64,000 nt of DNA, taken from the NCBI GenBank assembly GCA_934229625.1, contig CAKQDU010000004.1, positions 27,295 through 91,294 on the forward strand, given 5' to 3'. The stretch is from an uncultured Alphaproteobacteria bacterium (GTDB lineage: Bacteria; Pseudomonadota; Alphaproteobacteria; RF32; CAG-239). This document shows positions 24,577 through 41,344 of the stretch, one piece after another (positions within the stretch are counted from its first letter, which is position 1; the number at the start of each line of letters is the position of its first letter). The translations under genes were made by a program, and so were the position numbers. The notes below the pieces were generated by a model. That model had not been told where the DNA came from, did no database searches, and was given only the letters and a program-made list of their open reading frames with translations.

Positions 24577-27500
24577 TTAGAACTTATAACCTAAATTGAA
24601 CAGATAGTAAACATTGCTCTTTTGTTCGAGCGGAGCGTTTACCGCAGCGCTGAGCGAAAGTTTTTTATAGTCGTATTGCGCTTTCATTGTCAGCAAACCG
24701 CTGTTACGCTGTAAACGATTACTGCTAATTTGATAAGAACCAAGCATATTATCCATAGTTGCCATTGTTGAATATTTATTGCCAAATTCATGGAAATAGC
24801 GTCCGCCGGCAGTTAATAAAACAGATTGTTCTTTGCCTAGTTCAAACTCTTTTTTAATATCCATGCCAATAACAGATTGAATAGACGTAACTTTATCGCT
24901 ATCGGCTTTGAGTCCGCCGTTATTTTCTTTTAGGTCGTCAATTTTTACTTCGGTAATATTAGCGCCGATAACAGGCTCAATTTGCGCAACATTCACGTTA
25001 ATAGTTTGGCGCGCCTCAGCGTCAACACCATAGTAGTAGTTGGTTAAATCTGCTTTATATGCTTTATCTACGCCGCTGCGGCTGTAGTGACCATTGCCAA
25101 ACCCGACTTTAGGTTTAGCCATAGCGCGGAAATTATCGTTAGTGTAAGTAAGCGGAGCAAAAACTTCCAGCACATTGTTATAACGAGATGAATCGTCATC
25201 AAAATCGCTGTCGCTGCGAGCCGCCGCCGCACCAAAACCGGCGCGCCAGTTGTTGGCAATTTGATAGTCGCTGAAACCATAAACCGCTGTCACCTTGTCT
25301 TTGTAGCCGGAAACATTTTGTTTGCCGTCAAATTCTTGTTGATAAGCCATAACGTTAACTTTAGCGCGGTTGATTTCATCAGTTTGCGTCAAAATATCGT
25401 CATTAGCCGCGCGGTTGATATTTGAAAGTAAATCCAAGTCTTGTTTTGCCAAGTTTGGAACCATGCTAAAGCCAAATTCGCGGTTTATTGCCATATCAAA
25501 AGCAGAAGCGCTGGACGCGCCTTTTAAGGTGTTGAAAACGCCCTCGCCTTTTTGCGCCGCATAGTTAGTGCTTAAATAAGAAGCCAATTCTTTATCTGCA
25601 ACGGTTTCTGCAAATGATTTCATAGTCATAATAACATCGGTGTTTCCGGATTCGTTAGCGGCTTTTTCAGCGTTAAACATATAAGAGCCGGAAACCACAT
25701 TTAAACCTGCGTCTTTGCCGATAAATGAGTTATCATTGCGGTAGGTTGTTTCAAATCCGCTTTGAGTTATATCAGCGTTTGCGGTTACTGTTCCTTTTAA
25801 AACCGGAGCTGTATAGCTACCATTTTTACCGATTTCAATAGAACCGTTATTTTGTGTTGAAGCGTCAAAATCTACATTTGCTTCATAGTTTATAGTTCCA
25901 TTATTTATGAAAGACGCGTTGTTTTTCACCATGATTGCAGTTGATTTAGCGGATGATTCTTCGCTGTTTTCACTTTCGGTTTCATCTTCGCAATCCAAAC
26001 CCGTGCATTTTACGGCGCCGTTATTTACAATGATAGAACCGTTATTGGTTGCGGTGCCTGCGGTTAAATAAATTCCGTAAGATGTGCCGGATTGTCCGCC
26101 TTGATTTATGGTAATAGTTCCTTCATTGCTAAATTCGCCTCCGTAAAGTTTTACGCCGGAAGAACCTGAACCGTAAACAATGATTTTTCCTCCGTTTTCA
26201 TTTTTAGCAGTGCCGCCCTTTACTTCAATACCTGTGCCGCTGCTGACATAGTTGGAGGCCGAACCGATAGTTATGGTTCCGCTGTTTATAAATTCGCCGC
26301 TGTTAACAGCTGCGCCGATGCCGCCGTTGCCGATTACAGTAATATTGCCGCTGTTAGTTGTGGTTTCGCCGCCGACATTTATTCCGGTGCCGCTGCTTCC
26401 GGAAATATAAATTGAGCCGGTATTTGTTGTTTGTCCTGCCGAAATTATGCCGGTGCTGAAATCAGATTGTATAGAAATGTTTCCGCTGTTGTTAAATGTG
26501 CCGCTGCCTACGGAAACAGCAATATTTTTATTACTGTTGCCGGCAGATGTATGAACAATTTCAATTTCATTTGTATTATCAAAATTTGCGCTGCCGACGG
26601 AGACCGCTGTGCTGTCGCTGGTGTTATTCAGCCGTAAAGTTCCATTATTTGTAATTGTTCCGGAACTATCTTCGGCATTTATAATAGTTCCTTTTTCAGT
26701 AACTGAAAGCTGAACGCCGCTGTTGATTGTGAGTGTGGAAGCATCTTTTAGTTTTATCATTGTTCCCTTAGCGATGCTTTGATTTCTTGTTAATGTCAAA
26801 TCTCCTGAGCTGCCGGAAACAAGATAATAAGTTAGCGAATCTGCGGCATCAGATTTACAATTTGCGCCATCAGCGTTTTTATCGCATATAATAATATTTC
26901 CGACTTCTTCTACTTTAGCTTTTCCCTCAATTCGGAACACAACTGCATTTTTTCCGAAAATTTTAATAATATTGTTTTTTATAACAGCTCCGTCCTTATT
27001 TTCATTTGTTCCGGCAGAATAAATGGCGGTATTGTCATCGCCGTATATGTTTATAATACCATTATTGGTAATATGGCTGTTGCCTGTTGCATACATGCCG
27101 AAAGATTTTTTTTCAACTACGTTTATAACACCGTTTTTGTCATTTATCATGTTGGCAATACTCGTTGCGGCACTGCTCATACCTGTTGAATAACCGGTAT
27201 TAACGTTAATAGTTCCCTGATTAACAATTTTTGCTACAGAAATTGCATCGCTTGTCAAGTGCATGCCCGTATTGCCGTAGTTTGTGTTATCAGACATTAA
27301 ATTTATGATTCCGGTGTTGGTGGCAGAGCCTTGTTTGGATTCTACGGTCATAGCCGAGGTGTCGGCAGAAGACAAGGTGATTGTGCCGGAGTTTATTATG
27401 GATTCCGTTTCTGACGACGTTACCGAAGAAGTTAGGCTTGGTGATTTTGTATTCATAACATTTTGTTTAAGGTTAAGCAGATTTTTTGCATCTGAACTGC

Positions 27501-29634
27501 TACTGCTTGACGAACTGCTGCTGTTATTATTTGCTTCATAGATTATTGTTCCGGCATTGACGAGTTTACTATAGTTACCGCCAAATACTTCAGAAGACAC
27601 AGCATTGCGATAAATGTGAATAGTGCCATTGTTTGTGATGCTTGTATTGCCGCTATAATCATTTTTCATAGCTGTGGAATTGTTGGAATATACATTTATT
27701 TGTCCATTATTAACTAATGATGTTAAAGTGCTGTCGCTTGAACCATACATACCGATATTATTAGTATAAAGAGTCGCGGAACCGTCATTTCCTAAAATTA
27801 TGATACCGCTTTTATCGTTTGTTAATGTTCCGCCGTTATAAGATGCCATTCCATAGCCGTTGCTGGCGTTAAGTTTGATATTTCCGCTGTTGGTTATGGC
27901 CGGTTTTACAGCCGTATAAAGTCCAGAAACCGAACCTGAACCTTCTACTGCCAACATACCATAAGCCATACGCTGATTATCGCCGTTTGTTTGAATGGTG
28001 ATAGTTGCATTTTGATTATTGGTAATTTTACCGCCATGCACGGATTGCATACCGGCCGCAACAGCGACATTTCCGGACGCAGAGCTTCCTTCTGAATCGG
28101 TAGAAGACCTATCGTCCAAAGTAATGTTTATATTTCCATTGTTTGCAGCTGTGGTATTGGCTTCAGCGCGAATACCGACAATTCCTCCCAAACCTTTGCG
28201 CAAAGTTTTTGTAGAATCAAATGTATATAAACCTGTATATCCCAAATCAATTGTGCCGTTGTTTGTTAATATGGATTTTTCAGCGCGTTGAATATTTTTT
28301 GAACCGTTTAAAAAGCCGTCATCCAAATAACTTCCCATGCCGATAATATTAACTTTGATTTCAGAGGCGGCGGCTCCTGCGTCGCCTGCGCTTAGTTTTA
28401 TGGTGCCGCTGTTTAAGGCGGTGTTGGTATTGTTAAGGGCTTGTGTTCCGGAATTTATAATCATGGTTTCCATACCGATAATCGTACCTGATACGGCGGT
28501 TGTCTTAGTGTTTTCAGAAGAACCATCGGAGCCGGAACCGCTGCTTTGGGTATTGTCTTTAGTTGGGGCGGAAATGGCTTTTGTTGCCGAGCCGTTTATT
28601 TCTCCGGTGTTTATAATTTGCGAATTATTATCGGCATACATGCCTATAATGGTGTTATTTTCGTTATATCCCGAAAAATTAAGGTTTATGCCGTTAGAAT
28701 CAGTATTTTGAGCAACTCCGATTCCATTGTTGTAGGCAATTGAGTTGTTACTGGCAATCATTGCGACCGAACTGTTAAAAGCATCGGCGTTTATATAGCC
28801 ATTATTAACAACCTGACTGTTATTAACAGCAGCCATAGCGGTTGAACCTTCGTTTATGGAAATTTTGGTATCTTTATTATTTGTATATGAGCCTCCGTTT
28901 ATGGCTTCTAAGCCTATATGCATATATTTTCCTGCTTCTATCGGATTTTCATTAAATTTAAGTTCGGCAATTTTTGTTATATTCGGATTATTTACATCCA
29001 ATATACTGCTATTTGCCGCTTTTCCGGTGGTTGTATTATATATTGAACCCAAAGAGCCAAGAACGGAACCGAGATAATCGTTTGTTTCAGAGCCGCCGGC
29101 GTTGCTGTCGCTGCTTCCACCGCCTCCTCCTCCGCCCATAGCCAATGCGGCAATACCGCCGCCTACGGCCAAACCACCTAATAACCACCACGTTGTAGAA
29201 GAAATTTTGTAGCTTTCTTTTCCCATTTTTCCAAAAGCTTCACGAGGTGTAGCCGTTATTGAAACAGCTTTTGAGGAGTTTACGAAATCTTCATAATAAG
29301 GAATTTTCTGCACACATGGATGACGAGGATTTGCTCCGGCGGCGCGGAACGCGTTATATGTATAGGAATCACGATTTTGCGCGGCAACACATAGACCTGT
29401 GTCTCCGTTTTGATTTATGGTGTCTATATTCATACCCCGTCTGACGGAAGCACGCAGAGCTTCAACTTCGCCGTTTTGGGCCAAGTTATACATTCTGTTA
29501 AAAGATAATGGCGCTAAATTGTAGGCAAAAGCCTGAAAAGGCATGGAAGACAAGCCAATTGAAGCTATAGAAAACAAGCCGGCAGTTTTTAGCAAAATCT
29601 TATTATTTAACATATCAATCCTCATTAAAGACAA
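24577..29634 (-). CDS. large autotransporter (type Va) with N-terminal ankyrin-repeat module
   Basis: 1685 aa with a long signal region ending FQAFA. ANK-like [34 protein letters not shown], a Gly-rich hydrophobic segment, and a ~1100-aa passenger of degenerate NNG(T/I)I...-type beta-helix repeats. The C-terminal ~280 aa has a beta-barrel pattern ending [10 protein letters not shown] (terminal aromatic). Confidence 0.85.
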
Positions 29635-32796: not shown

Positions 32797-33615
32797 ATGT
32801 ATAAATTTATTCTTTTAAGCTTTATTTTTATTTGTTCTGCGAATGCGCAAGAAATTCAAGATTTTGATTGGCAAAAAACAGTAAAAGAAAAACTATCAGC
32901 TCCAGGTATTCAGGAGATGTTGACAGATGGTTTTTCTGTTAATGATGTTAACGGCGATGGTTTTATTTCCGAAAACGAATATGGTTATCTGCTCAACAGT
33001 ATAGATATTGATTTTAGCCTCAACGATGAACAAAAGTCGGCTAAAAAATCCAGAATGACGGAATATTTTAAACAAGCAGATAAAAACGGCGATTTTCGTT
33101 TGGATAAAGATGAATATTTTGCGGTTTTACAAAAAGAAACAGAATACGAAGCGAAAGAACGCGTGAATAAAATACAAGAAATGGCAAATAAATCTCCAGA
33201 AGAAATATTGAAAGACTTGAACGAACAAATGGACAAAACAAAAAAAGCTTTAGAAAAATTTCAAAATGTTTCTGCTGATGAGATGTCGGATAATATAATA
33301 AGTAATATATCCGGCAATATTGCCGGAGAAAATTATTTTCAGATGGATAAAAACAAAGATGGCTGCGTTACTGAAGATGAATATGTGGAATATATGACAG
33401 TTTTTGCCTCTGATAATAAAGAGGATGAGGTGAAATATCCGAAATTATCCGAGGATGATTGGAGAAATATTTATCAGTTTGAGAAAAAATCTAAGGAAAA
33501 TTGTTTAACTAAAGAAGAATATATGCGTAATTATTTGGAAACGCCTGATATGTCAGTAGTAGAGTCCGATACTGCCGCTTCTGAATTGTTAACAGATAAA
33601 AAAGTTGTCAAATAA
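32797..33615 (+). CDS. secreted EF-hand calcium-binding protein
   Basis: Signal peptide MYKFILLSFIFICSANA. EF-hand loops DVNGDGFISENEY, DKNGDFRLDKDEY and DKNKDGCVTEDEY. Confidence 0.8.
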   Translation: MYKFILLSFIFICSANAQEIQDFDWQKTVKEKLSAPGIQEMLTDGFSVNDVNGDGFISENEYGYLLNSIDIDFSLNDEQKSAKKSRMTEYFKQADKNGDFRLDKDEYFAVLQKETEYEAKERVNKIQEMANKSPEEILKDLNEQMDKTKKALEKFQNVSADEMSDNIISNISGNIAGENYFQMDKNKDGCVTEDEYVEYMTVFASDNKEDEVKYPKLSEDDWRNIYQFEKKSKENCLTKEEYMRNYLETPDMSVVESDTAASELLTDKKVVK

Positions 33616-34230: not shown

Positions 34231-35859
34231 ATGAAAAAGTTTTTGATTTTGCTGTTTATGTGTATATTTGGTTTTTCAGCGTTTGCCGCAGAAACAAATA
34301 AAGATTATAATGAATACGAAAAGATAACTGATGACATTAAAAATAATCCGAATCAAGCTATTAAACAGCTCAAAAAAATGATTGATACAAATGATTCCGC
34401 TGCGTTTGAATATTTAATATTGCAGAGTATCTATCATCCTAAACAGGTAAAGACTAAAGAGTTTTCGCAAATTGCCCAAAGATTGCATGAAAAATTGGTT
34501 GCTCAATACGAAAAAATTGTTCCAAATGAGCCTTTTTATAGAATGTATCAAGAGCATTATTTAGAATTAGTGGGCGAAAATCCGCTGAAATGTTACAAGC
34601 AGTTAAAATGCTTGATAGAAATCGGGGCTTTGCATTTTTTTAAATTTTTTAATATTTGGGATAATGAAAGTAATTATATAAATTATACGCCATGGCAGAT
34701 TGTTGTTCCCTGCCCTACAGCGCGAAAACTTAAAATGACGGCTATTCTGGATTATGCCGGCGGCGGTCAAGGAGCTGAAGCAATAGATATTTCTAACTGT
34801 TCGCAATATGATGAATATTATTTCCCTAAAGAAGTAAACAAATTTTATTATAATTTATATAGTAATTTTTATTTTGAGAGCGGAGGCTCCAGCCGTTTTG
34901 TTCATCAGGCAAAGGAAAAATACTATAATAACATTTATCGCTATAATCCGGATTGGAATATTAAAGGCAATGAAAAATATCTTAAAGTTATGCCGCTGGA
35001 ACAATGGGCGATGGCCTCATATCCGAATTATAAAAAAGTTACAGAAACTCTAAATTATGGTATAGGTTTTAAAGAAGCGGTAAAGCAGCTGACTCAGCAT
35101 TATGTTAAAACGTTTAAGGTTTCAGAAAAAATTGCAGAGCAATATGCTCATTTAGCAATGATGCCGCCGGCAACCCGCGGAGAACCGGTAGATAAAAGCA
35201 CTCTGCGCTATAAAATTCTTTCCGGTGCGCCGATAAAAGAAATTAAGGATTTGCTTATAAAGCAAATTCAGGGCGGAGAAATTCTTAAAGAACCGCAGAT
35301 ACCTGTTGAGGCTGATGAAATTTTAATGATAAGCATTCATCGTCCTGATGTTTTGGCTTTATTGCTGCAGGAGTGTTCTGAAAATAAGTGTAAAGGAATA
35401 AATACAGATGTAAATGCTGTAAATTCTATAGGTAAAACCGCTTTGATGTATGCAGCTCAATACGGCTTTTTAGACAGCGTAAAAATGTTGTTAAAAGCTG
35501 GTGCGGATATAGATGCTCAGACTAATGCCGGCAATAAAGACAACGGTTATTATTGCAATGAGGATATTTGCATACAGTATGGAGAAAGAACAGCCTTAAT
35601 GTATGCAGTGCAGGAAGGAAATTTAGAGGTTGCGAAGTATTTAGTTGAAAATGGTGCCGATTTAAAATTGACTGATTCGCAAGGGAATGATGTTTATGAT
35701 TATTTGCGAGGTTCTGTGCCTTATGGAACATCTTCTGAGCCGAAAAATGAAAACTTAACCTCAGAACAAGTTGAGGAATTTGCAGAATTTTTGAGAAATT
35801 ATGAAAAAGAACATTCAGATGCTCAAACTCCTAATATTCGGGAAAAAAGTTGTCTGTAG
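34231..35859 (+). CDS. secreted ankyrin-repeat protein
   Basis: Signal peptide MKKFLILLFMCIFGFSAFA. C-terminal ANK repeats GKTALMYAAQYGFLDSVKMLLKAGADIDAQ and ERTALMYAVQEGNLEVAKYLVENGADLKL. Confidence 0.8.
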   Translation: MKKFLILLFMCIFGFSAFAAETNKDYNEYEKITDDIKNNPNQAIKQLKKMIDTNDSAAFEYLILQSIYHPKQVKTKEFSQIAQRLHEKLVAQYEKIVPNEPFYRMYQEHYLELVGENPLKCYKQLKCLIEIGALHFFKFFNIWDNESNYINYTPWQIVVPCPTARKLKMTAILDYAGGGQGAEAIDISNCSQYDEYYFPKEVNKFYYNLYSNFYFESGGSSRFVHQAKEKYYNNIYRYNPDWNIKGNEKYLKVMPLEQWAMASYPNYKKVTETLNYGIGFKEAVKQLTQHYVKTFKVSEKIAEQYAHLAMMPPATRGEPVDKSTLRYKILSGAPIKEIKDLLIKQIQGGEILKEPQIPVEADEILMISIHRPDVLALLLQECSENKCKGINTDVNAVNSIGKTALMYAAQYGFLDSVKMLLKAGADIDAQTNAGNKDNGYYCNEDICIQYGERTALMYAVQEGNLEVAKYLVENGADLKLTDSQGNDVYDYLRGSVPYGTSSEPKNENLTSEQVEEFAEFLRNYEKEHSDAQTPNIREKSCL

Positions 35860-35983: not shown

Positions 35984-36145
35984 GGGCGTCAGAAACCCTT
36001 TTAATCGTAATCAGTCACTTGCATAAGTGACTTTAAACTGTTTATGCCGATTTCTGTTTTTGGACGGATGTCGGTTAAATAAGGCATGAGCCGAATAGGC
36101 CGAGCCGTTTTACGATTACGATTTACGGTTTCTGAACATCCGCCC
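35984..36145. repeat. segmented ~30-nt inverted repeat enclosing ~101 nt upstream of pilin-like paralog D
   Basis: GGGCG/CGCCC, TCAGAAACC/GGTTTCTGA and AATCGTAATC/GATTACGATT (35984-36012 vs 36114-36145). The enclosed segment contains the perfect hairpin AGTCACTT-GCAT-AAGTGACT (36013-36032). Confidence 0.75.
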
Positions 36146-36196
36146 GCCTATATAGTGGGTTTTGTTTTTATGTGCAATTTTGGGAGGTTTAGAAAT

Positions 36197-36832
36197 ATGA
36201 AAAATCAACGTGGCCGCAGTATGATAGAAATGCTGGGAGTTCTGGCGATTATCGGCGTTCTCTCAGTCGGTGGTATTGCCGGATATTCCAAAGCTATGGA
36301 ACATTTCAAACTTAATAAAGCTATTAGCGAATACAGCTATTTAATTTATGGATTGTTGGAGCATCTTACAGATTTGAAAAATGTTTCTAAAAATGGAACA
36401 GCTGGTAGGCAGTATGGGTTGACAAATATTGTTGAGGCGGCAAATTTAGTGCCGAAAACATGGATAAGAGACAGCAGTGCCGATTTTCATGACCCAAACG
36501 GAAATTATATCCGAGTTTTTTCTGCCAACGGGCGTGTGGTTATAGATATGTATTTAGGTAGTTTTCAAGTTGTTGAAAATAAATCAGCTTCAACAGCATT
36601 TTCTCCAAAATTATGTTCGCGGATTATGCAGGATATTGTGCAACCCTTAGCTTCTGTTTTATATGTTGCATGGTTTACAAATGATAGCGGAAAATATTAT
36701 TATTGGGGCGAATCTTACTGTTTTGCAAATCAAAAATGCATACGAGATTTAACCTTGCAAGAAATTAACAGCGCATGTAAATCATGCACAAAAGAAGCAG
36801 GTAAAGTTTGCGGACTTATTTTAGCGTTTTGA
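36197..36832 (+). CDS. prepilin-like Cys-rich secreted protein, paralog D
   Basis: Start chosen at MKNQRG|RSMIEMLGVLAIIGVLSVGGIAGYSKAMEHFKLNKAISEYSYLIYGL (the track extends to 36086). The C-terminus is CFANQKC...CKSCTKEAGKVCGLILAF. Confidence 0.75.
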   Translation: MKNQRGRSMIEMLGVLAIIGVLSVGGIAGYSKAMEHFKLNKAISEYSYLIYGLLEHLTDLKNVSKNGTAGRQYGLTNIVEAANLVPKTWIRDSSADFHDPNGNYIRVFSANGRVVIDMYLGSFQVVENKSASTAFSPKLCSRIMQDIVQPLASVLYVAWFTNDSGKYYYWGESYCFANQKCIRDLTLQEINSACKSCTKEAGKVCGLILAF

Positions 36833-37201
36833 AAAAAGCCTGAAAATTAGTATTACACTAGCTTTGAGGCACCTTAAATTTATCTTACGCACATACAATA
36901 ACAATAAATTGTTATTACAATCATTGCAATAGCGTACCATTTCGTTATTTTCCAAGAAGTTTTTTTATCTTCTTCATAACGGTTTTCATATTCTACCTTG
37001 TTTGTCATTTCAAGTAATCCAAGATAAATGAATGTGCAAACCAAAATCGCTATAAAATAAGCAGCTGCCATAATTATTGAAAATTAAAAATAAATAATTG
37101 CTATAAGTATAATAAAACATCAGGATATTGTCAATTTATCTATTTTGCAGTTTTATATAATATTTCTATTTTGGAATAACATTTATCTATTTAAAACAAA
37201 T

Positions 37202-37235
37202 AAGCACCTTAAAAGGCGCTTATCATAAATGGTGC
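37202..37235. repeat. left 34-nt direct repeat of the tRNA-Thr-associated islet, followed by a decayed tRNA 3'-end remnant
   Basis: AAGCACCTTAAAAGGCGCTTATCATAAATGGTGC is identical to 41047-41080. The downstream AATCGGACT (37251-37259) matches the T-arm segment of the intact tRNA (41091-41099). Confidence 0.85.
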
Positions 37236-37481
37236 GCGATACTGTGCAATAATCGGACTAGGAATTATAAGGATTTTAAGGAATTAATAAGGAAAATTGA
37301 GTTGTTTGAGGATGGCTCGGAACTGGTTTTATAACATATAATGTATCTTTAGATTATAACATACAAATATAACAATTGAATAAATTCTTTTTTTTATTTT
37401 GTTTGTACATATCGATGTGGAATAAAAGAAAATATTTTTTGACATTATTCCGTAAAGCGTACATTATCAAAGAAGATTAGA

Positions 37482-38750
37482 ATGGAGTTAAAAATAATGG
37501 AATTAGTAGCTATTAAAGATATGTGCGCATCTTGGAATGTCTCCTCTAGACGTATTACGAAGCTATGTGAAGAAGGTCGAATAATTGGAGCTCAAAAAAT
37601 TGCAGGAATATGGTTGCTACCAGCACAAGCAAAAAAGCCAAATGATGCAAGGATTAAAAGTGGTAAGTACATTAAAAAAACATCATCTTCAACAACTATA
37701 ATGCCATTTCATTATAATGAAAAAATAAATAAACCATCCCTTGTTTCTCTGTTTTCTGGATGCGGAGGGCTTGACTTAGGTTTTGAACAAGCTGGTTTTA
37801 ATATTGTTTGGGCCAATGATTTTGATGCGGATGCTCAAAGGGTTTATAAATTGAATATTGGCTCAATTGACGGAAGGGATATATTATCTGTTAAAGAAAC
37901 AGAAATACCTAATTGTGATATTTTGACAGCGGGTTTTCCTTGTCAACCTTTTTCAAACGCAGGAAAGAGAAAAGGTGTGCACGATTCTAGAGGTATGCTA
38001 TATAAAGAATGTTTGAGAATAATCAAAAATAAAATGCCTAAAGTTATTGTATTTGAAAATGTTAAAGGTTTATTATCAACAAAATATATTGATGGTAGAA
38101 ATTTAACAGATGTTATTATTGATGATTTATCAAGCATGAATAATGTTGGATATAATGTTGTTTATCAATTGATTAATGCCTCAGATTATGGTGTTCCACA
38201 AAATCGTCAAAGAGTTGTCTTTGTGGGAATTCGAAAAGATTTACATAAAATATTCTCATTTCCTGAAAAACAAGTAAAAAATAAACTAGCCTTAAAGCAT
38301 ATTTTAGATATTCCTAATGATGTTCCTAATCAAGTAGACTGGGGCCTGTCTCCTCAAGCTCTTGAAATGATTGAGTATATTCCAGAAGGTGGATCATGGA
38401 AAGATGTTCCTTATGAACATCTTGCTCCACGTTTCAAAAAGATCAGAGATAATATGAAGAAATATCACTCTCCTAATTTTTATAGACGTTTCTCCCGAGA
38501 TGAGATTAATGGAACTATAACAGCTTCTGCACAACCTGAAAATTGCGGAATAATTCATCCTACGCAAAATCGGCGCTATACAATTAGAGAGGTTGCGCGA
38601 ATACAAACATTTCCAGATAGTTTCAAATTCTTTGATAATAATGCAAAAGATATTACCGCAATGTATAAGGTTATTGGGAATGCTGTTCCTGTTAAATTGG
38701 CTAAAACATTAGGAACGGCTATAATGCAACAAATTTTCTCTGGAGAATAG
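37482..38750 (+). CDS. DNA (cytosine-5)-methyltransferase with N-terminal HTH extension
   Basis: Motifs FSGCGGLDLGF (I), GFPCQPFS (IV), ENVKGL (VI), QNRQRV (VIII), TIREVARIQTFPDSF and GNAVPV (X). N-terminal ~80 aa is HTH-like (VAIKDMCASWNVSSRRITKLCEEGRIIGAQKIAGIWLLP). An alternative start ATG at 37497 has GGAG upstream. Confidence 0.92.
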   Translation: MELKIMELVAIKDMCASWNVSSRRITKLCEEGRIIGAQKIAGIWLLPAQAKKPNDARIKSGKYIKKTSSSTTIMPFHYNEKINKPSLVSLFSGCGGLDLGFEQAGFNIVWANDFDADAQRVYKLNIGSIDGRDILSVKETEIPNCDILTAGFPCQPFSNAGKRKGVHDSRGMLYKECLRIIKNKMPKVIVFENVKGLLSTKYIDGRNLTDVIIDDLSSMNNVGYNVVYQLINASDYGVPQNRQRVVFVGIRKDLHKIFSFPEKQVKNKLALKHILDIPNDVPNQVDWGLSPQALEMIEYIPEGGSWKDVPYEHLAPRFKKIRDNMKKYHSPNFYRRFSRDEINGTITASAQPENCGIIHPTQNRRYTIREVARIQTFPDSFKFFDNNAKDITAMYKVIGNAVPVKLAKTLGTAIMQQIFSGE

Positions 38751-38752
38751 AT

Positions 38753-40144
38753 ATGGATACGGATAGAGCATACCTTTTAGGTTTGATAATCGGCGGAGGT
38801 ATTTTTGGAAATACTGAAGATGTTTTTAGAATAAGATTACCCTTTAGGCAGTGGGGGTCATATACAGATAATCCTCAAAGGGCAGGACAAATATCCCAAG
38901 ATGTTATGAAAGTAGTCAGCCCTTTGTTTAGGGCTATATATGGTTTAGCCATATCTTATGATGCTTCAGAAAGTGGAGCTTGGAATATCTTATGTGAGGG
39001 AGATTTAACATCTTTAAAAAATGAACTTGAGGATTATGGAATCATCTGTGAAGGTGAAGTTCGAAAGACCGTAAATATTAACAATATAACCCCATTACTA
39101 GTTGATGATAATTTAAAGAGAAGATTTATTGCAGGCCTAGCAGATACAATCGGAAGCACAAGAAGCTCTCATAGGCGCTTTAATAATGAAAAACAAATGA
39201 TTTCTTTTGAAATATCCGGTTTTTGTTTTAATTTTGTATGTTCTTTATGTAAGTTATTGCACAGTATAAAATGTTATCCAGATCAAGTCTTGTGGAATCA
39301 TCCAAATTTTCATTGTTCACAAAATCCATATGATTCCAAATGGAAAAAAGGTTTTAAATTACGAGTTTATTTAGATCAATATGATAAATTTGGAGCTTTT
39401 GCATTCAAATCAAAAGCACAATCTTTGAAACAAAATAGAGCACTTGAAACTATAGAAAATGAAGGAATACCTTGTGAAACACGAGAAATAAAAGCTCCCT
39501 CAATCACTTGTGTACATTGCGATGAAAATAGTATTTTATTACCTCCAGAAATACAAGGCGGACATTATTTACACAATCGCCATATTTGTGCTGTTTTAAA
39601 TTGCCCGCATGCTCCTTTTAATGAAGTAGAGAAATTGATTTCTAAGGCTGAACAATACATTATGCCATTCCCAGTTTTAGTTAAAGGAACTAAAGTTGAA
39701 ATAAATAATATAATAAAACAAGATGATTTATTAAAAAACAGAAACTATACAAAGCAACAATTGCAGATCAAAAAAATATATGAAACATCAATAACTAATA
39801 GTAATAAATTGCTATTTGAAAAAGAAAAAGGAACAGGTTACCCCATAAACAAATTAATTTTAGCAATTACATATTTATTAGCAGCAAAGTCTGGAAAATT
39901 AAATGGTTCTCGTCCTAAAGGTAGTAAAGATGACATTATTAAGGATTACTTAGCTTTATTTCCTGATGCCTCTATAATAATAAAAATTCCAGATTTACTT
40001 ACTCCAATGATCGTTTCTCTAGATAACTATGCAGCACTTGTAGGTCCTTTAAATCCGAAAGCCTATAAAAAGTTAATTCATACAGATGCAAATAATAAAT
40101 ATAAAATATATGTATCCAAGATTACAGAGGAGGATTTAAAATGA
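38753..40144 (+). CDS. hypothetical protein with two degenerate LAGLIDADG-like motifs and a Cys/His cluster
   Basis: 463 aa. RAYLLGLIIGGG (aa 5-16), RRFIAGLADTIGS (aa ~122-134), and CVHCDEN...GGHYLHNRHICAVLNCPH. Starts 2 nt after the MTase stop. Fold assignment is by eye only. Confidence 0.45.
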   Translation: MDTDRAYLLGLIIGGGIFGNTEDVFRIRLPFRQWGSYTDNPQRAGQISQDVMKVVSPLFRAIYGLAISYDASESGAWNILCEGDLTSLKNELEDYGIICEGEVRKTVNINNITPLLVDDNLKRRFIAGLADTIGSTRSSHRRFNNEKQMISFEISGFCFNFVCSLCKLLHSIKCYPDQVLWNHPNFHCSQNPYDSKWKKGFKLRVYLDQYDKFGAFAFKSKAQSLKQNRALETIENEGIPCETREIKAPSITCVHCDENSILLPPEIQGGHYLHNRHICAVLNCPHAPFNEVEKLISKAEQYIMPFPVLVKGTKVEINNIIKQDDLLKNRNYTKQQLQIKKIYETSITNSNKLLFEKEKGTGYPINKLILAITYLLAAKSGKLNGSRPKGSKDDIIKDYLALFPDASIIIKIPDLLTPMIVSLDNYAALVGPLNPKAYKKLIHTDANNKYKIYVSKITEEDLK

Positions 40145-40719
40145 AAAAAAATGAGGTCGCTCATTATCCAGAGATTACATCTTATATCGAAGCTCAATTA
40201 AATAGTAATTTCAGAGTAAAAGGAATAACCAATGTTCACATTTATTGGAAAAGTGGTGAATTAACATCCAAACTGAAAGAATTAATCAATGAGCACCCTC
40301 TCGATTGTGAATGCCTTAAAACATATTGTCAAAATACACCACCTTTAAATCTAGATATTTTCGCAACTATTACTAATGGAAAGAAATTTGTTATCTTAAT
40401 CTTGGAAATAAAATTAAGAACCGCGGTTGGATTGGCAGAATGGTCGCAGCTTGTTGGGTACAATTTTGTGTCTGATGCTCAATACGGTTTATTAGTAAAT
40501 ATTGATGCTGGAGCTAGTAGTCGTTTAATTGGAATATTATCAACAGAAATAGATGCATCAAAAATTGTTCGCATTAAAGAAAATGGAAAAAGAATTGAGC
40601 ATTTATTAGGTTTTATGCAATGGAATACTGTTACACAAAACTTTGAATATAGTAATTTGGGGAAAATTTGGTCTTTATCAGCTTTGAGTAATGAATTAAT
40701 TGCTCAGTTTAATGATTAA
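40141..40719 (+). CDS. PD-(D/E)xK (RecB/Cas4-like) nuclease-fold protein
   Basis: 192 aa. YPEITSYIEAQL, LNLDIFATI, FVILILEIKL (ExK) and WSQLVGY (QxxxY). ATGA overlap with the preceding ORF. Confidence 0.55.
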   Translation: MKKNEVAHYPEITSYIEAQLNSNFRVKGITNVHIYWKSGELTSKLKELINEHPLDCECLKTYCQNTPPLNLDIFATITNGKKFVILILEIKLRTAVGLAEWSQLVGYNFVSDAQYGLLVNIDAGASSRLIGILSTEIDASKIVRIKENGKRIEHLLGFMQWNTVTQNFEYSNLGKIWSLSALSNELIAQFND

Positions 40720-41046
40720 TATTCATTTTTAATTAATTATTACTTATTGCCTTTGGTGGCATTAAGTTAATCGCTTATTTTAAATTTCAAATCGTAGCAA
40801 AATGTCGTTGGCAAGTTGCGTTTTAGGGGCTCGCAATAAAGAAAATACACCGCATAATGTAAATAGTTAATGAGTAAACACTATTTACGAAAGGAAAAAG
40901 TTATGTGGTATGTAAAACTCAACGACACAATTAAAACGCTTGGTTTTATTAGCTTTCATACAAAAAGTCCAATAGTTTATGAAAAATTGCTATTTTCAAA
41001 ACCGTCAAAATCGGCTTTGGCGGGAGCTTTTGTTTACATACAAAAA

Positions 41047-41080
41047 AAGCACCTTAAAAGGCGCTTATCATAAATGGTGC
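41047..41080. repeat. right 34-nt direct repeat (3' flank plus last 6 nt of tRNA-Thr-GGU)
   Basis: Identical to 37202-37235. Contains the post-tRNA hairpin AAGCGCC/GGTGCTT as read on the minus strand. Confidence 0.85.
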
Positions 41081-41149
41081 CATTAGCAAGAATCGGACTT
41101 GCGACCCCGTCATTACCAATGACGTGCTCTACCACTGAGCTATAATGGC
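41075..41149 (-). tRNA. tRNA-Thr (anticodon GGU), CCA encoded
   Basis: Reverse complement is GCCATTATAGCTCAGTGGTAGAGCACGTCATTGGTAATGACGGGGTCGCAAGTTCGATTCTTGCTAATGGCACCA. Folds by eye as a cloverleaf with anticodon loop TTGGTAA. Confidence 0.9.
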
Positions 41150-41308: not shown

Positions 41309-41344
41309 TACCAATGACGTGCTCTACCACTGAGCTATAATGGC
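41309..41344 (-). pseudogene. duplicated 5' half (36 nt, through the anticodon) of tRNA-Thr(GGU)
   Basis: 41309-41344 is identical to 41114-41149. Identity stops inside the anticodon loop. It lies 159 nt upstream (in tRNA sense) of the intact gene. Confidence 0.85.

Follow-up and report, generated by a model that had tools for sequence, protein, structure and literature searches.

A candidate mobile restriction-modification cassette that couples a C5 cytosine methyltransferase to a LAGLIDADG-fold protein and a PD-(D/E)xK protein

Which function is served by two proteins without database matches that are encoded directly behind a C5 cytosine DNA methyltransferase (MTase) was the question raised by this locus. 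The window, the whole stretch of DNA that was analysed, comprised 64,000 nucleotides (nt) of contig CAKQDU010000004.1, a contig of a Hadza human-gut metagenome, from an uncultured alphaproteobacterium. The operon consisted of three open reading frames (ORFs) on the plus strand according to the ORF listing, ORF1 (37482-38750, 422 aa), ORF2 (38753-40144, 463 aa) and ORF3 (40141-40719, 192 aa). ORF1 and ORF2 were 2 nt apart, ORF2 and ORF3 shared an ATGA stop/start overlap at 40141-40144, and a GAGGAGG ribosome-binding site (Shine-Dalgarno) was located 8 nt 5' of the ORF3 start. The initial annotation, made from the window alone, had described three co-directional, tightly coupled ORFs; its coordinates and junctions were reproduced exactly, and every peptide motif that it had named in the three proteins was found in the translations. 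The module is quite likely a restriction-modification (R-M) system; we favour, with somewhat less assurance, a mobile Type II-like cassette with a heteromeric endonuclease.

Pfam analysis showed that ORF1 matched PF00145 (E 1.9e-87) over residues 87-415. ORF1 also matched TIGR00675 (NCBIfam) and PADLOC MTase_II (3.5e-103), and a second PADLOC MTase_II profile spanned residues 10-418, the N-terminal extension included. The protein carried FSGCGGLDLGF, GFPCQPFS, ENVKGL, QNRQRV and GNAVPV, with motifs I, IV, VI, VIII and X present. The catalytic core and the target-recognition domain (TRD) were encoded at 37731-38750, and the TRD residues (approximately 287-360) were at least 93% conserved in 75 homologs. 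These sequence features identify ORF1 as a genuine C5 cytosine MTase with complete catalytic motifs.

The N-terminal extension of ORF1 (37482-37730, about 83 aa) resembled a helix-turn-helix (HTH) domain of the MerR/excisionase type. Homologous segments (up to 62% identity) were present in other loci, with free-standing versions of 62-70 aa located immediately 5' of the MTase. In L001, L011, L016, L030 and L061, the free-standing ORF was in another frame than the MTase; in L003, L018, L058 and L111, the two shared a frame but had stops between them. Overall, the HTH was fused in about one third of the loci and a separate upstream ORF in at least nine, and about half of the loci had no extension. 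The HTH-like extension of about 80 aa in the initial annotation gained support from the free-standing ORFs of L030, L001 and L011, which matched PF12728 HTH_17 (30 bits, cut-off 27) and PF20038 HTH_59, but the window's own copy gave only a weak HTH_17 match (E 0.14). Such fission and fusion across loci fits a C-protein-like regulator, and the extension is probably an autoregulatory module of this kind; the earlier idea of a self-regulating MTase was thereby strengthened. N-terminal regulatory HTH domains occur in the C5-MTases of the SsoII, EcoRII and MspI type, and other R-M systems are controlled by C proteins. As in those systems, the HTH of the module was attached to, or encoded just 5' of, the MTase, an arrangement that points to an R-M operon controlling its own transcription; unlike theirs, it was of the HTH_17/HTH_59 (MerR/excisionase-like) kind and dispensable in about half of the loci.

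The AlphaFold2 model of ORF2, built from family alignments, had a predicted local distance difference test (pLDDT) score of 91.2. The top 31 Foldseek matches of this model in the PDB were all LAGLIDADG proteins (probability 1.0), on the basis of which residues 1-230 were assigned to a predicted pseudo-dimeric double-LAGLIDADG domain (mapped at 38753-39445, residues 1-231). The matches included PI-SceI (3.3e-5), E-DreI, I-DmoI (target TM-score up to 0.63) and the WhiA N-domain (3hyj, 5.8e-4), as well as I-AniI, I-SceI, I-OnuI and the bI3 maturase. The motif helices were AYLLGLIIGGG (residues 6-16) and FIAGLADTIGS (residues 125-135), and their spacing was about 119 aa, not about 116 aa as first given. 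We take the motif YLLGLIIGGG to be almost identical to that of I-DmoI except for the catalytic Asp.

The metal-binding acids of I-DmoI are D20 and E117 (PMC3384342). According to a motif-level alignment, Gly15 and Ile133 of ORF2 would occupy the metal-binding Asp/Glu positions, and none of the 67 main-family and 6 sister-family sequences had an acidic residue at either one. Among 67 homologs, down to 34% identity, G14 and G15 were invariant, and G16 and I133, at the motif helix ends, were at least 93% conserved. The beta-strand residues Q148, S151, E153, K199, K202 and R204 were invariant, and so were D131 and D177. Structure prediction and Foldseek thus agreed with the LAGLIDADG fold without catalytic acids that had been read from the sequence.

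Residue conservation delimited a His-rich motif in ORF2 (residues 241-285, 39473-39607) of the form H255-x-D-E258-N ... G-G-H271-x-x-H274-x-x-H277-x-C279 ... C284. H255 and H274 were invariant, and E258, H271 and H277 were at least 93% conserved. In the Cys/His cluster reported at first, the cysteines were not conserved, being absent from the distant branch (L069-L075). The motif is probably a small metal-binding or structural module. A universal zinc site or an HNH/His-Me nuclease was rejected: the cysteines were lost in the distant branch, the sister family had a different ligand subset, and the ORF2 model had no beta-beta-alpha-Me hairpin.

These conserved residues bear on whether both subunits could be catalytic. 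Heteromeric Type II enzymes have one large and one small polypeptide (about 190 aa), and in BtsI, BsrDI and BspD6I recognition is performed by the large subunit (PMC1950550, PMC4081073). By analogy with such Type IIT enzymes, ORF2 might recognise the site and nick one strand through a non-canonical site, either the His-rich motif or E153/D177, and ORF3 might nick the other strand. Large-plus-small-subunit restriction endonucleases (REases) work in this way, and the conservation of the His motif together with E153 and D177 would suit it. This arrangement is nevertheless improbable: beyond H255 and H271 no set of His-motif ligands was common to the main, distant and sister branches, the model lacked the hairpin at the His motif, and the canonical LAGLIDADG acids were absent. 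Moreover, Type IIT systems normally have two MTases for an asymmetric site (PMC4081073), whereas one MTase per module was found in all loci.

The C-terminal alpha/beta domain of ORF2 (residues 286-463, 39608-40144) was modelled at pLDDT 90-98, and its fold was unassigned. It had no match by Pfam on sub-sequences or on all members, nor with a 48-sequence profile against the PDB, and the conservation list contained no family-wide invariant acidic residue in this domain. Its absence from the sister family and its lack of catalytic-type residues make a docking or accessory role more likely. An origin as an ORF3 paralog was rejected (hhalign probability 0.2%). Relatives of 225 aa with the C-terminal domain only were likewise rejected as a separate architecture, since at least one (P0369, L096) was a frameshift artefact with the LAGLIDADG part upstream in another frame.

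The AlphaFold2 model of ORF3 (pLDDT 95.2) showed the alpha-beta-beta-beta-alpha-beta topology that is canonical for restriction endonucleases, in which D stands on strand 2 and (D/E)xK on strand 3. Its elements were a helix (5-26) with E11 and E17, a strand (70-78) with D72, a strand (83-91) with E89-x-K91, and a helix (98-111) with Q103 and Y107; the corresponding sequence motifs were LNLDIFATI, LILEIKL and WSQLVGY. D72 (codon 40354-40356), E89 (40405-40407) and K91 (40411-40413), as well as Q103 and Y107, were invariant in 74/74 homologs, down to 31-39% identity. The candidate catalytic residues in the predicted structure are E11/E17, D72, E89 and K91, followed by Q103 and Y107. The PD-(D/E)xK fold first proposed for ORF3 was therefore backed by topology and by the invariance of D72, E89 and K91.

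Foldseek analysis of ORF3 in the PDB gave individually weak matches (best E 0.017) to the RPB5 N-domain, Can2, Cap4, EndoMS, MunI, BamHI, FokI and BsmI, and in BFVD to Mrr-domain proteins (best E 2.4e-3) and to proteins named restriction endonuclease or PD-(D/E)XK. Nearly all the matches were restriction-endonuclease-like folds. At the sequence level, the sole affinity of ORF3 was a sub-threshold match to TIGR04256 (GxxExxY), shared by 35/37 family members; we take TIGR04256 to be a PD-(D/E)xK family. The RecB/Cas4-type likeness noted at first was not specific.

Even when thresholds were permissive or profiles were used, neither ORF2 nor ORF3 matched an entry of Pfam, NCBIfam or PADLOC or a PDB sequence, and no PADLOC REase_II, Pfam RE_* or NCBIfam match was obtained for either at E <= 1. 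ORF2 was also without a Pfam match in 48 members. A characterised REase, Vsr or other family, against which the initial annotation had weighed its proposal, was thus not found in Pfam, NCBIfam, PADLOC or the PDB, REBASE being outside the comparison. A word-indexed search gave 596 ORF2 and 590 ORF3 clusters at 90% identity, all length-conserved. When 1.84 billion cluster representatives were scanned exhaustively with HMMER, only 248 related ones emerged; the family is sharply bounded.

Linkage was examined from both ends. The ORF2-seeded scan, with one genome per GTDB species, yielded 78 loci, and in 78/78 a closely related C5-MTase (50-82% identity) ended just 5' of the ORF2 homolog. An ORF3 homolog lay directly 3' of ORF2 in 74/78; the exceptions (L059, L071, L076 and L078) were contig ends or had a truncated ORF2. 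Most junctions overlapped by 4-14 nt. The converse, ORF3-seeded scan of metagenomes yielded 80 loci, 72 of which had room upstream, and all 72 had ORF2 sequence there. The co-occurrence with C5-MTases that the initial annotation had suggested checking was obtained in both directions, and the three-gene linkage was obligate. No universal fourth gene was found by flank clustering.

The hosts came from over 10 bacterial phyla and no fewer than three archaeal lineages, at 50-70% identity. The bacterial hosts were many Bacillota families, Bacteroidota, Akkermansia, Melainabacteria, Brachyspira, Coriobacteriia, Alpha-, Gamma- and Deltaproteobacteria, Anaerolineae and the candidate phyla radiation (CPR; Paceibacterota, Saccharibacteria); the archaeal hosts were Methanocorpusculum, Methanimicrococcus, Ca. 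Methanoplasma and a Nitrososphaerota metagenome-assembled genome (MAG). Cultured carriers included Parablautia muri D42-62, Merdibacter massiliensis Marseille-P3254, Syntrophomonas palmitatica JCM 14374, Flavonifractor sp. HCP28S3_F3 and Lawsonibacter sp. LCP25S3_E2. Such identity across distant hosts implies that the module has often been transferred horizontally. Large serine recombinases were located near the module in 13 loci, and relaxase, Tra, primase and AAA genes of the kind carried by integrative elements recurred. The complete module was present on only two IMG/VR contigs, and ORF2 had no tblastn match in 72,556 PLSDB plasmids or 50,697 INPHARED phage genomes.

A sister family provided independent evidence on the function of the pair. 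Shorter ORF2 relatives (290-314 aa) consisted of the LAGLIDADG domain and a C-terminal His motif, without the C-terminal domain of ORF2, and neither catalytic position was acidic. In three independent sister loci, the short LAGLIDADG protein was encoded between a beta-class N6/N4 MTase (PF01555, SPPY motif) and a protein of 162-166 aa; one of these loci was on a conjugative element beside an integrase. The 162-166-aa protein was an ORF3 homolog (hhalign E 4.4e-5 with a single sequence; 97% probability, E 7e-11 profile-profile), with D, ExK and SQxxGY aligned. As the ORF3 homolog and the dead LAGLIDADG protein stand beside an unrelated MTase, the nuclease pair travels with unrelated MTases, as REases do. 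The LAGLIDADG-like/PD-(D/E)xK pair is thus a unit combined with two unrelated MTase classes, which is the hallmark of a restriction endonuclease.

The sister family and the linkage also bear on whether ORF3 could act alone. It could be a conventional small homodimeric Type IIP REase with its own recognition, and ORF2 an obligatory accessory, for example a timing regulator (a giant C-protein analogue), a chaperone or inhibitor of ORF3, or a target-search factor. At 192 aa, ORF3 is within the size range of PvuII, MunI and BamHI, of which MunI and BamHI were among its fold matches, and a single MTase implies a symmetric site, which would suit a homodimer. Regulation by a dead LAGLIDADG protein has a precedent in WhiA (PMC3384342). 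Against this, ORF3 was never found without ORF2 (72/72 loci), the cluster counts of the two were nearly equal, and the invariant beta-strand residues of ORF2 (Q148 to R204) are as expected of a DNA-contact surface. A separate HTH regulator was already present, and the ORF2/ORF3 pair stayed together despite the change of MTase class. On balance, an ORF3 acting alone is unlikely.

Comparison of conspecific strains that have the identical downstream 702-aa gene showed that the module occupied a variable slot. The right boundary of the slot was a tRNA-Thr(GGT) gene (41075-41149, minus strand; ARAGORN; Rfam RF00005, 70.3 bits). A 38-nt direct repeat, which includes the tRNA 3' tip, was present in two copies that were 37/38 identical at a spacing of 3845 nt. 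The left copy (37198-37235, plus strand), with a hairpin and TGGTGC (a copy of the tRNA-Thr 3' tip), formed the left boundary of the slot and was followed by a decayed tRNA-like stretch; the right copy (41043-41080, plus strand) overlapped the tRNA-Thr 3' end. In the conspecific strains, the cargo of the slot was of three kinds. L087 had the MTase-ORF2-ORF3 module, L088 had an REase of the NgoMIV family (PADLOC REase_II, 2.2e-101) and the C5-MTase belonging to it, and L085 (4804-6335) and L086 (4606-6137), both on the minus strand, had a co-directional gene pair encoding 346 aa and 158 aa. The 38-nt repeat was at the left edge of the alternative cargos L085, L086 and L088, and the same tRNA flanked L085-L088. 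The slot is a cassette-exchange hotspot, and the cassette has no integrase. The module thus occurs in mobile and defence-type settings, with genes of integrative and conjugative elements and in a slot held alternatively by an NgoMIV-type R-M system, in line with the defence context raised by the initial annotation. None of the computational tests that the initial annotation had named as able to overturn its proposal did so.

Patterns of decay were compared in 140 loci with full MTase coverage; stops between a separate HTH ORF and the MTase core were not counted as disruption of the MTase. The catalytic core of the MTase was intact in 138/140. Of the two flagged loci, L005 had a stop merely at residue 420/422, and L099 had the sole real core stop, together with a frameshifted ORF2. 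ORF2 was deleted or interrupted beside an intact MTase in L067, L077 and L056, and a broken MTase with intact ORF2 and ORF3 was not found among the 140 loci. This asymmetry, in which the numbers are small, agrees with a toxic nuclease that is restrained by the MTase.

An alternative in which ORF2 and ORF3 are not an REase was weighed against these observations. The pair might serve MTase-associated repair or maintenance, such as a mismatch endonuclease for deaminated 5-methylcytosine (5mC), or be another defence effector with methylation as the self-mark. Repair nucleases such as Vsr frequently accompany C5-MTases, and the mismatch endonuclease EndoMS/NucS was among the weak fold matches of ORF3. 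However, a canonical Vsr (PF03852) was present separately and in addition in 11 loci, and ORF2 and ORF3 had no Pfam match to it. The sister family uses an N4/N6 MTase, which makes repair of deaminated 5mC irrelevant, a classical R-M system could occupy the slot in place of the module, the decay asymmetry agrees with an MTase that restrains a toxic nuclease, and the module was carried on mobile elements. Such a role is very improbable.

For the favoured Type II-like cassette with a heteromeric endonuclease, the following mechanism is proposed. ORF1 would methylate cytosine C5 within a short site, probably a symmetric one because the module has a single MTase, and the HTH, fused or free-standing, would probably repress the operon's own promoter. 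The translationally coupled ORF2 and ORF3 would assemble into a restriction enzyme. In this complex, ORF2 would be a domesticated, dead pseudo-dimeric LAGLIDADG scaffold that reads the DNA and binds the unmethylated target through its conserved beta-saddle. ORF3, with the sole catalytic constellation conserved family-wide (E...D72...E89-x-K91), would be the only catalytic subunit and would hydrolyse DNA in a Mg2+-dependent manner, probably as two copies per site so that both strands are cut. Cleavage would then be sensitive to methylation, and the cassette would be expected to confer a defence phenotype. We consider this particular division of labour between ORF2 and ORF3 to have slightly better than an even chance of being correct.

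Several points weigh against this mechanism. The fold matches of ORF3 were individually weak (best E 2.4e-3 to 0.017). With 192 aa, ORF3 is large enough for a self-sufficient homodimeric REase, and we infer the specificity role of ORF2 from fold and linkage only. ORF2 keeps the invariant acidic and His residues D131, E153, D177, H255 and H274, so that a non-canonical second active site is conceivable. Finally, dead LAGLIDADG domains may not bind DNA via the saddle, as WhiA shows (PMC3384342).

The length of the recognised site was also considered. In a more far-reaching form of the proposal, the ORF2 saddle would read a pseudo-palindromic site of at least 10-14 bp that contains the short MTase site, and would position two non-specific copies of ORF3, giving a natural 'meganuclease-type' restriction enzyme; we regard this form as conceivable, though doubtful. 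The specificity of the MTase was not given by its PDB relatives M.HaeIII and M.HhaI, because the alignment covered the catalytic half only and not the TRD. In k-mer statistics pooled over 866 kb from 79 carrier sequences, GGWCC was the most depleted 5-mer, with an observed/expected ratio (O/E) of 0.49 and a value below expectation in 75/79 carrier sequences. GGCC was also strongly depleted (O/E 0.59; 78/79 carrier sequences), and GGCCC had an O/E of 0.75. The depletion is compatible with a GGNCC- or GGWCC-type site, as a lead only, since carriers alone were covered and avoidance of GGCC, GATC and CTAG is generic.

Comparison with known systems showed that the closest organisation is that of the heteromeric Type II enzymes (BslI, alpha2beta2; BtsI, BsrDI and BspD6I; BbvCI and Bpu10I), in which two adjacent endonuclease genes, one large and one small, stand by an MTase. 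BslI, moreover, has a single MTase and a symmetric site, as proposed for the module. Unlike these enzymes, ORF2 and ORF3 matched no REase profile in Pfam or PADLOC, the large subunit had a LAGLIDADG fold without catalytic residues, and one catalytic constellation was evident.

ORF2 shared its fold with the LAGLIDADG homing endonucleases I-DmoI, I-SceI, PI-SceI, I-AniI and I-OnuI (Foldseek probability 1.0). In contrast to them, its catalytic acids were replaced family-wide (Gly15, Ile133), its gene was neither in an intron or intein nor free-standing and was always the middle gene of an MTase operon, and it had an extra His-rich module and a C-terminal domain of about 180 aa. With WhiA/DUF199 and the LAGLIDADG maturases, ORF2 shared a scaffold without the metal-binding acids that was recruited to a host function (PMC3384342). 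It differed from WhiA in having no C-terminal HTH domain and no Pfam WhiA match (48 members), in being located in an R-M cassette instead of the whi operon, in being partnered with a nuclease, and in its patchy distribution driven by horizontal transfer, whereas WhiA is vertical in Gram-positives.

The closest analogue in concept comes from engineered proteins in which PvuII or MutH was fused with inactive I-SceI (Fonfara et al. 2012, PMC3258161; PMC3627573); these likewise join a dead LAGLIDADG binding module to a PD-(D/E)xK restriction-type cleavage module. Those are artificial and single-chain; the module is natural, two-gene and MTase-protected. For Type II REases, five nuclease folds are named in comprehensive reviews, PD-(D/E)xK, HNH, GIY-YIG, PLD and half-pipe, and LAGLIDADG is absent from this set; a 2014 review of Type II enzymes makes no mention of it (PMC4081073). 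The described domesticated LAGLIDADG proteins are regulators and maturases only (PMC3384342). An R-M or defence system with a LAGLIDADG-fold component was not found in the literature search, which agrees with the initial annotation, to which no such R-M architecture was known, REBASE being outside this comparison as well. Judged against Pfam, NCBIfam, PADLOC, the PDB and the literature, without REBASE, the endonuclease architecture is previously undescribed.

Several variants of the module were observed. In L055 (4885-7401), the MTase stop codon was missing and an in-frame linker of about 30 aa led into the ORF2 homolog, giving an 838-aa ORF that is either a natural fusion of the MTase and the LAGLIDADG subunit or a MAG assembly error. 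In L077 (6486-9729) and L062 (1402-5822), insertions of about 3-4 kb interrupted the ORF2 homolog or parted it from the MTase, and L067 had an internal ORF2 deletion of residues 262-352. The canonical Vsr gene adjoined the module in L010, L012, L025, L028, L046, L050, L051, L057, L061, L062 and L063, downstream in 10/11, as would fit an MTase that actively forms 5mC.

Among plasmids, the MTase had its closest homologs (56-58% identity) on S. epidermidis plasmid NZ_CP121512.1 (L179) and F. sanfranciscensis pLS2 (L180), linked to a gene for an AAA-family ATPase. A hypothetical protein on pLS2 and an IS1182-family transposase on the S. epidermidis plasmid lay between the MTase and the ATPase, and no recognisable REase was found beside the two MTases with their AAA-ATPase genes. 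These plasmids suggest that MTases of this clade are also used by another kind of restriction system, one with an ATPase. As for the 346-aa and 158-aa genes of L085 and L086, which had no Pfam match on record and no PADLOC match, they could be another uncharacterised defence or R-M pair without an obvious MTase, given the other occupants of the slot.

The G+C content was about 30% across 37-41 kb of the window and 36-42% in the flanks. A consensus scan gave a sigma-70-like site, TTGACA-17-CATTAT (10/12), at 37439-37467 on the plus strand just 5' of ORF1; the number of promoter-like sites in the region was not above the shuffled expectation, and the site is thus a candidate promoter only. A 67-aa ORF (40870-41073, plus strand) lay between ORF3 and the tRNA inside the repeat-bounded island, overlapped the hairpin of the right repeat, and received a gene call in L082 and L084. 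The 5' half of tRNA-Thr was repeated exactly over 36 nt (41114-41149 and 41309-41344); the second copy, 195 nt past the tRNA, drew no tRNA call. It resembles a partly duplicated tRNA and is consistent with repeated integration or excision here. According to Pfam and the translations, the upstream neighbours encoded a secreted EF-hand protein (32797-33615), a 542-aa ankyrin-repeat protein with a signal peptide (34231-35859) and a type IV pilin-like protein (36086-36832), which is unusual for a gut bacterium. Further upstream was a very large ORF of 1685 aa with a TTG start (24577-29634, minus strand).

If the proposed cassette is confirmed, it would represent a third way of domesticating the homing-endonuclease scaffold, which here would supply specificity as a subunit of an R-M enzyme, in a widespread family (about 600 clusters per protein in bacteria, CPR and archaea) wholly missed by PADLOC, Pfam and NCBIfam. 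Should a long site prove to be read by the saddle, the module might be interpreted as the natural counterpart of the inactive-I-SceI/PvuII fusions and as the founder of a modular REase class that exchanged m5C and m4C/m6A MTases. New enzymes, perhaps rare-cutting ones, might be obtained from the family, and nuclease engineering might draw on its binding and cleavage modules, which would have evolved as separable units in nature; it would also explain transformation barriers and 5mC methylomes of many gut anaerobes.

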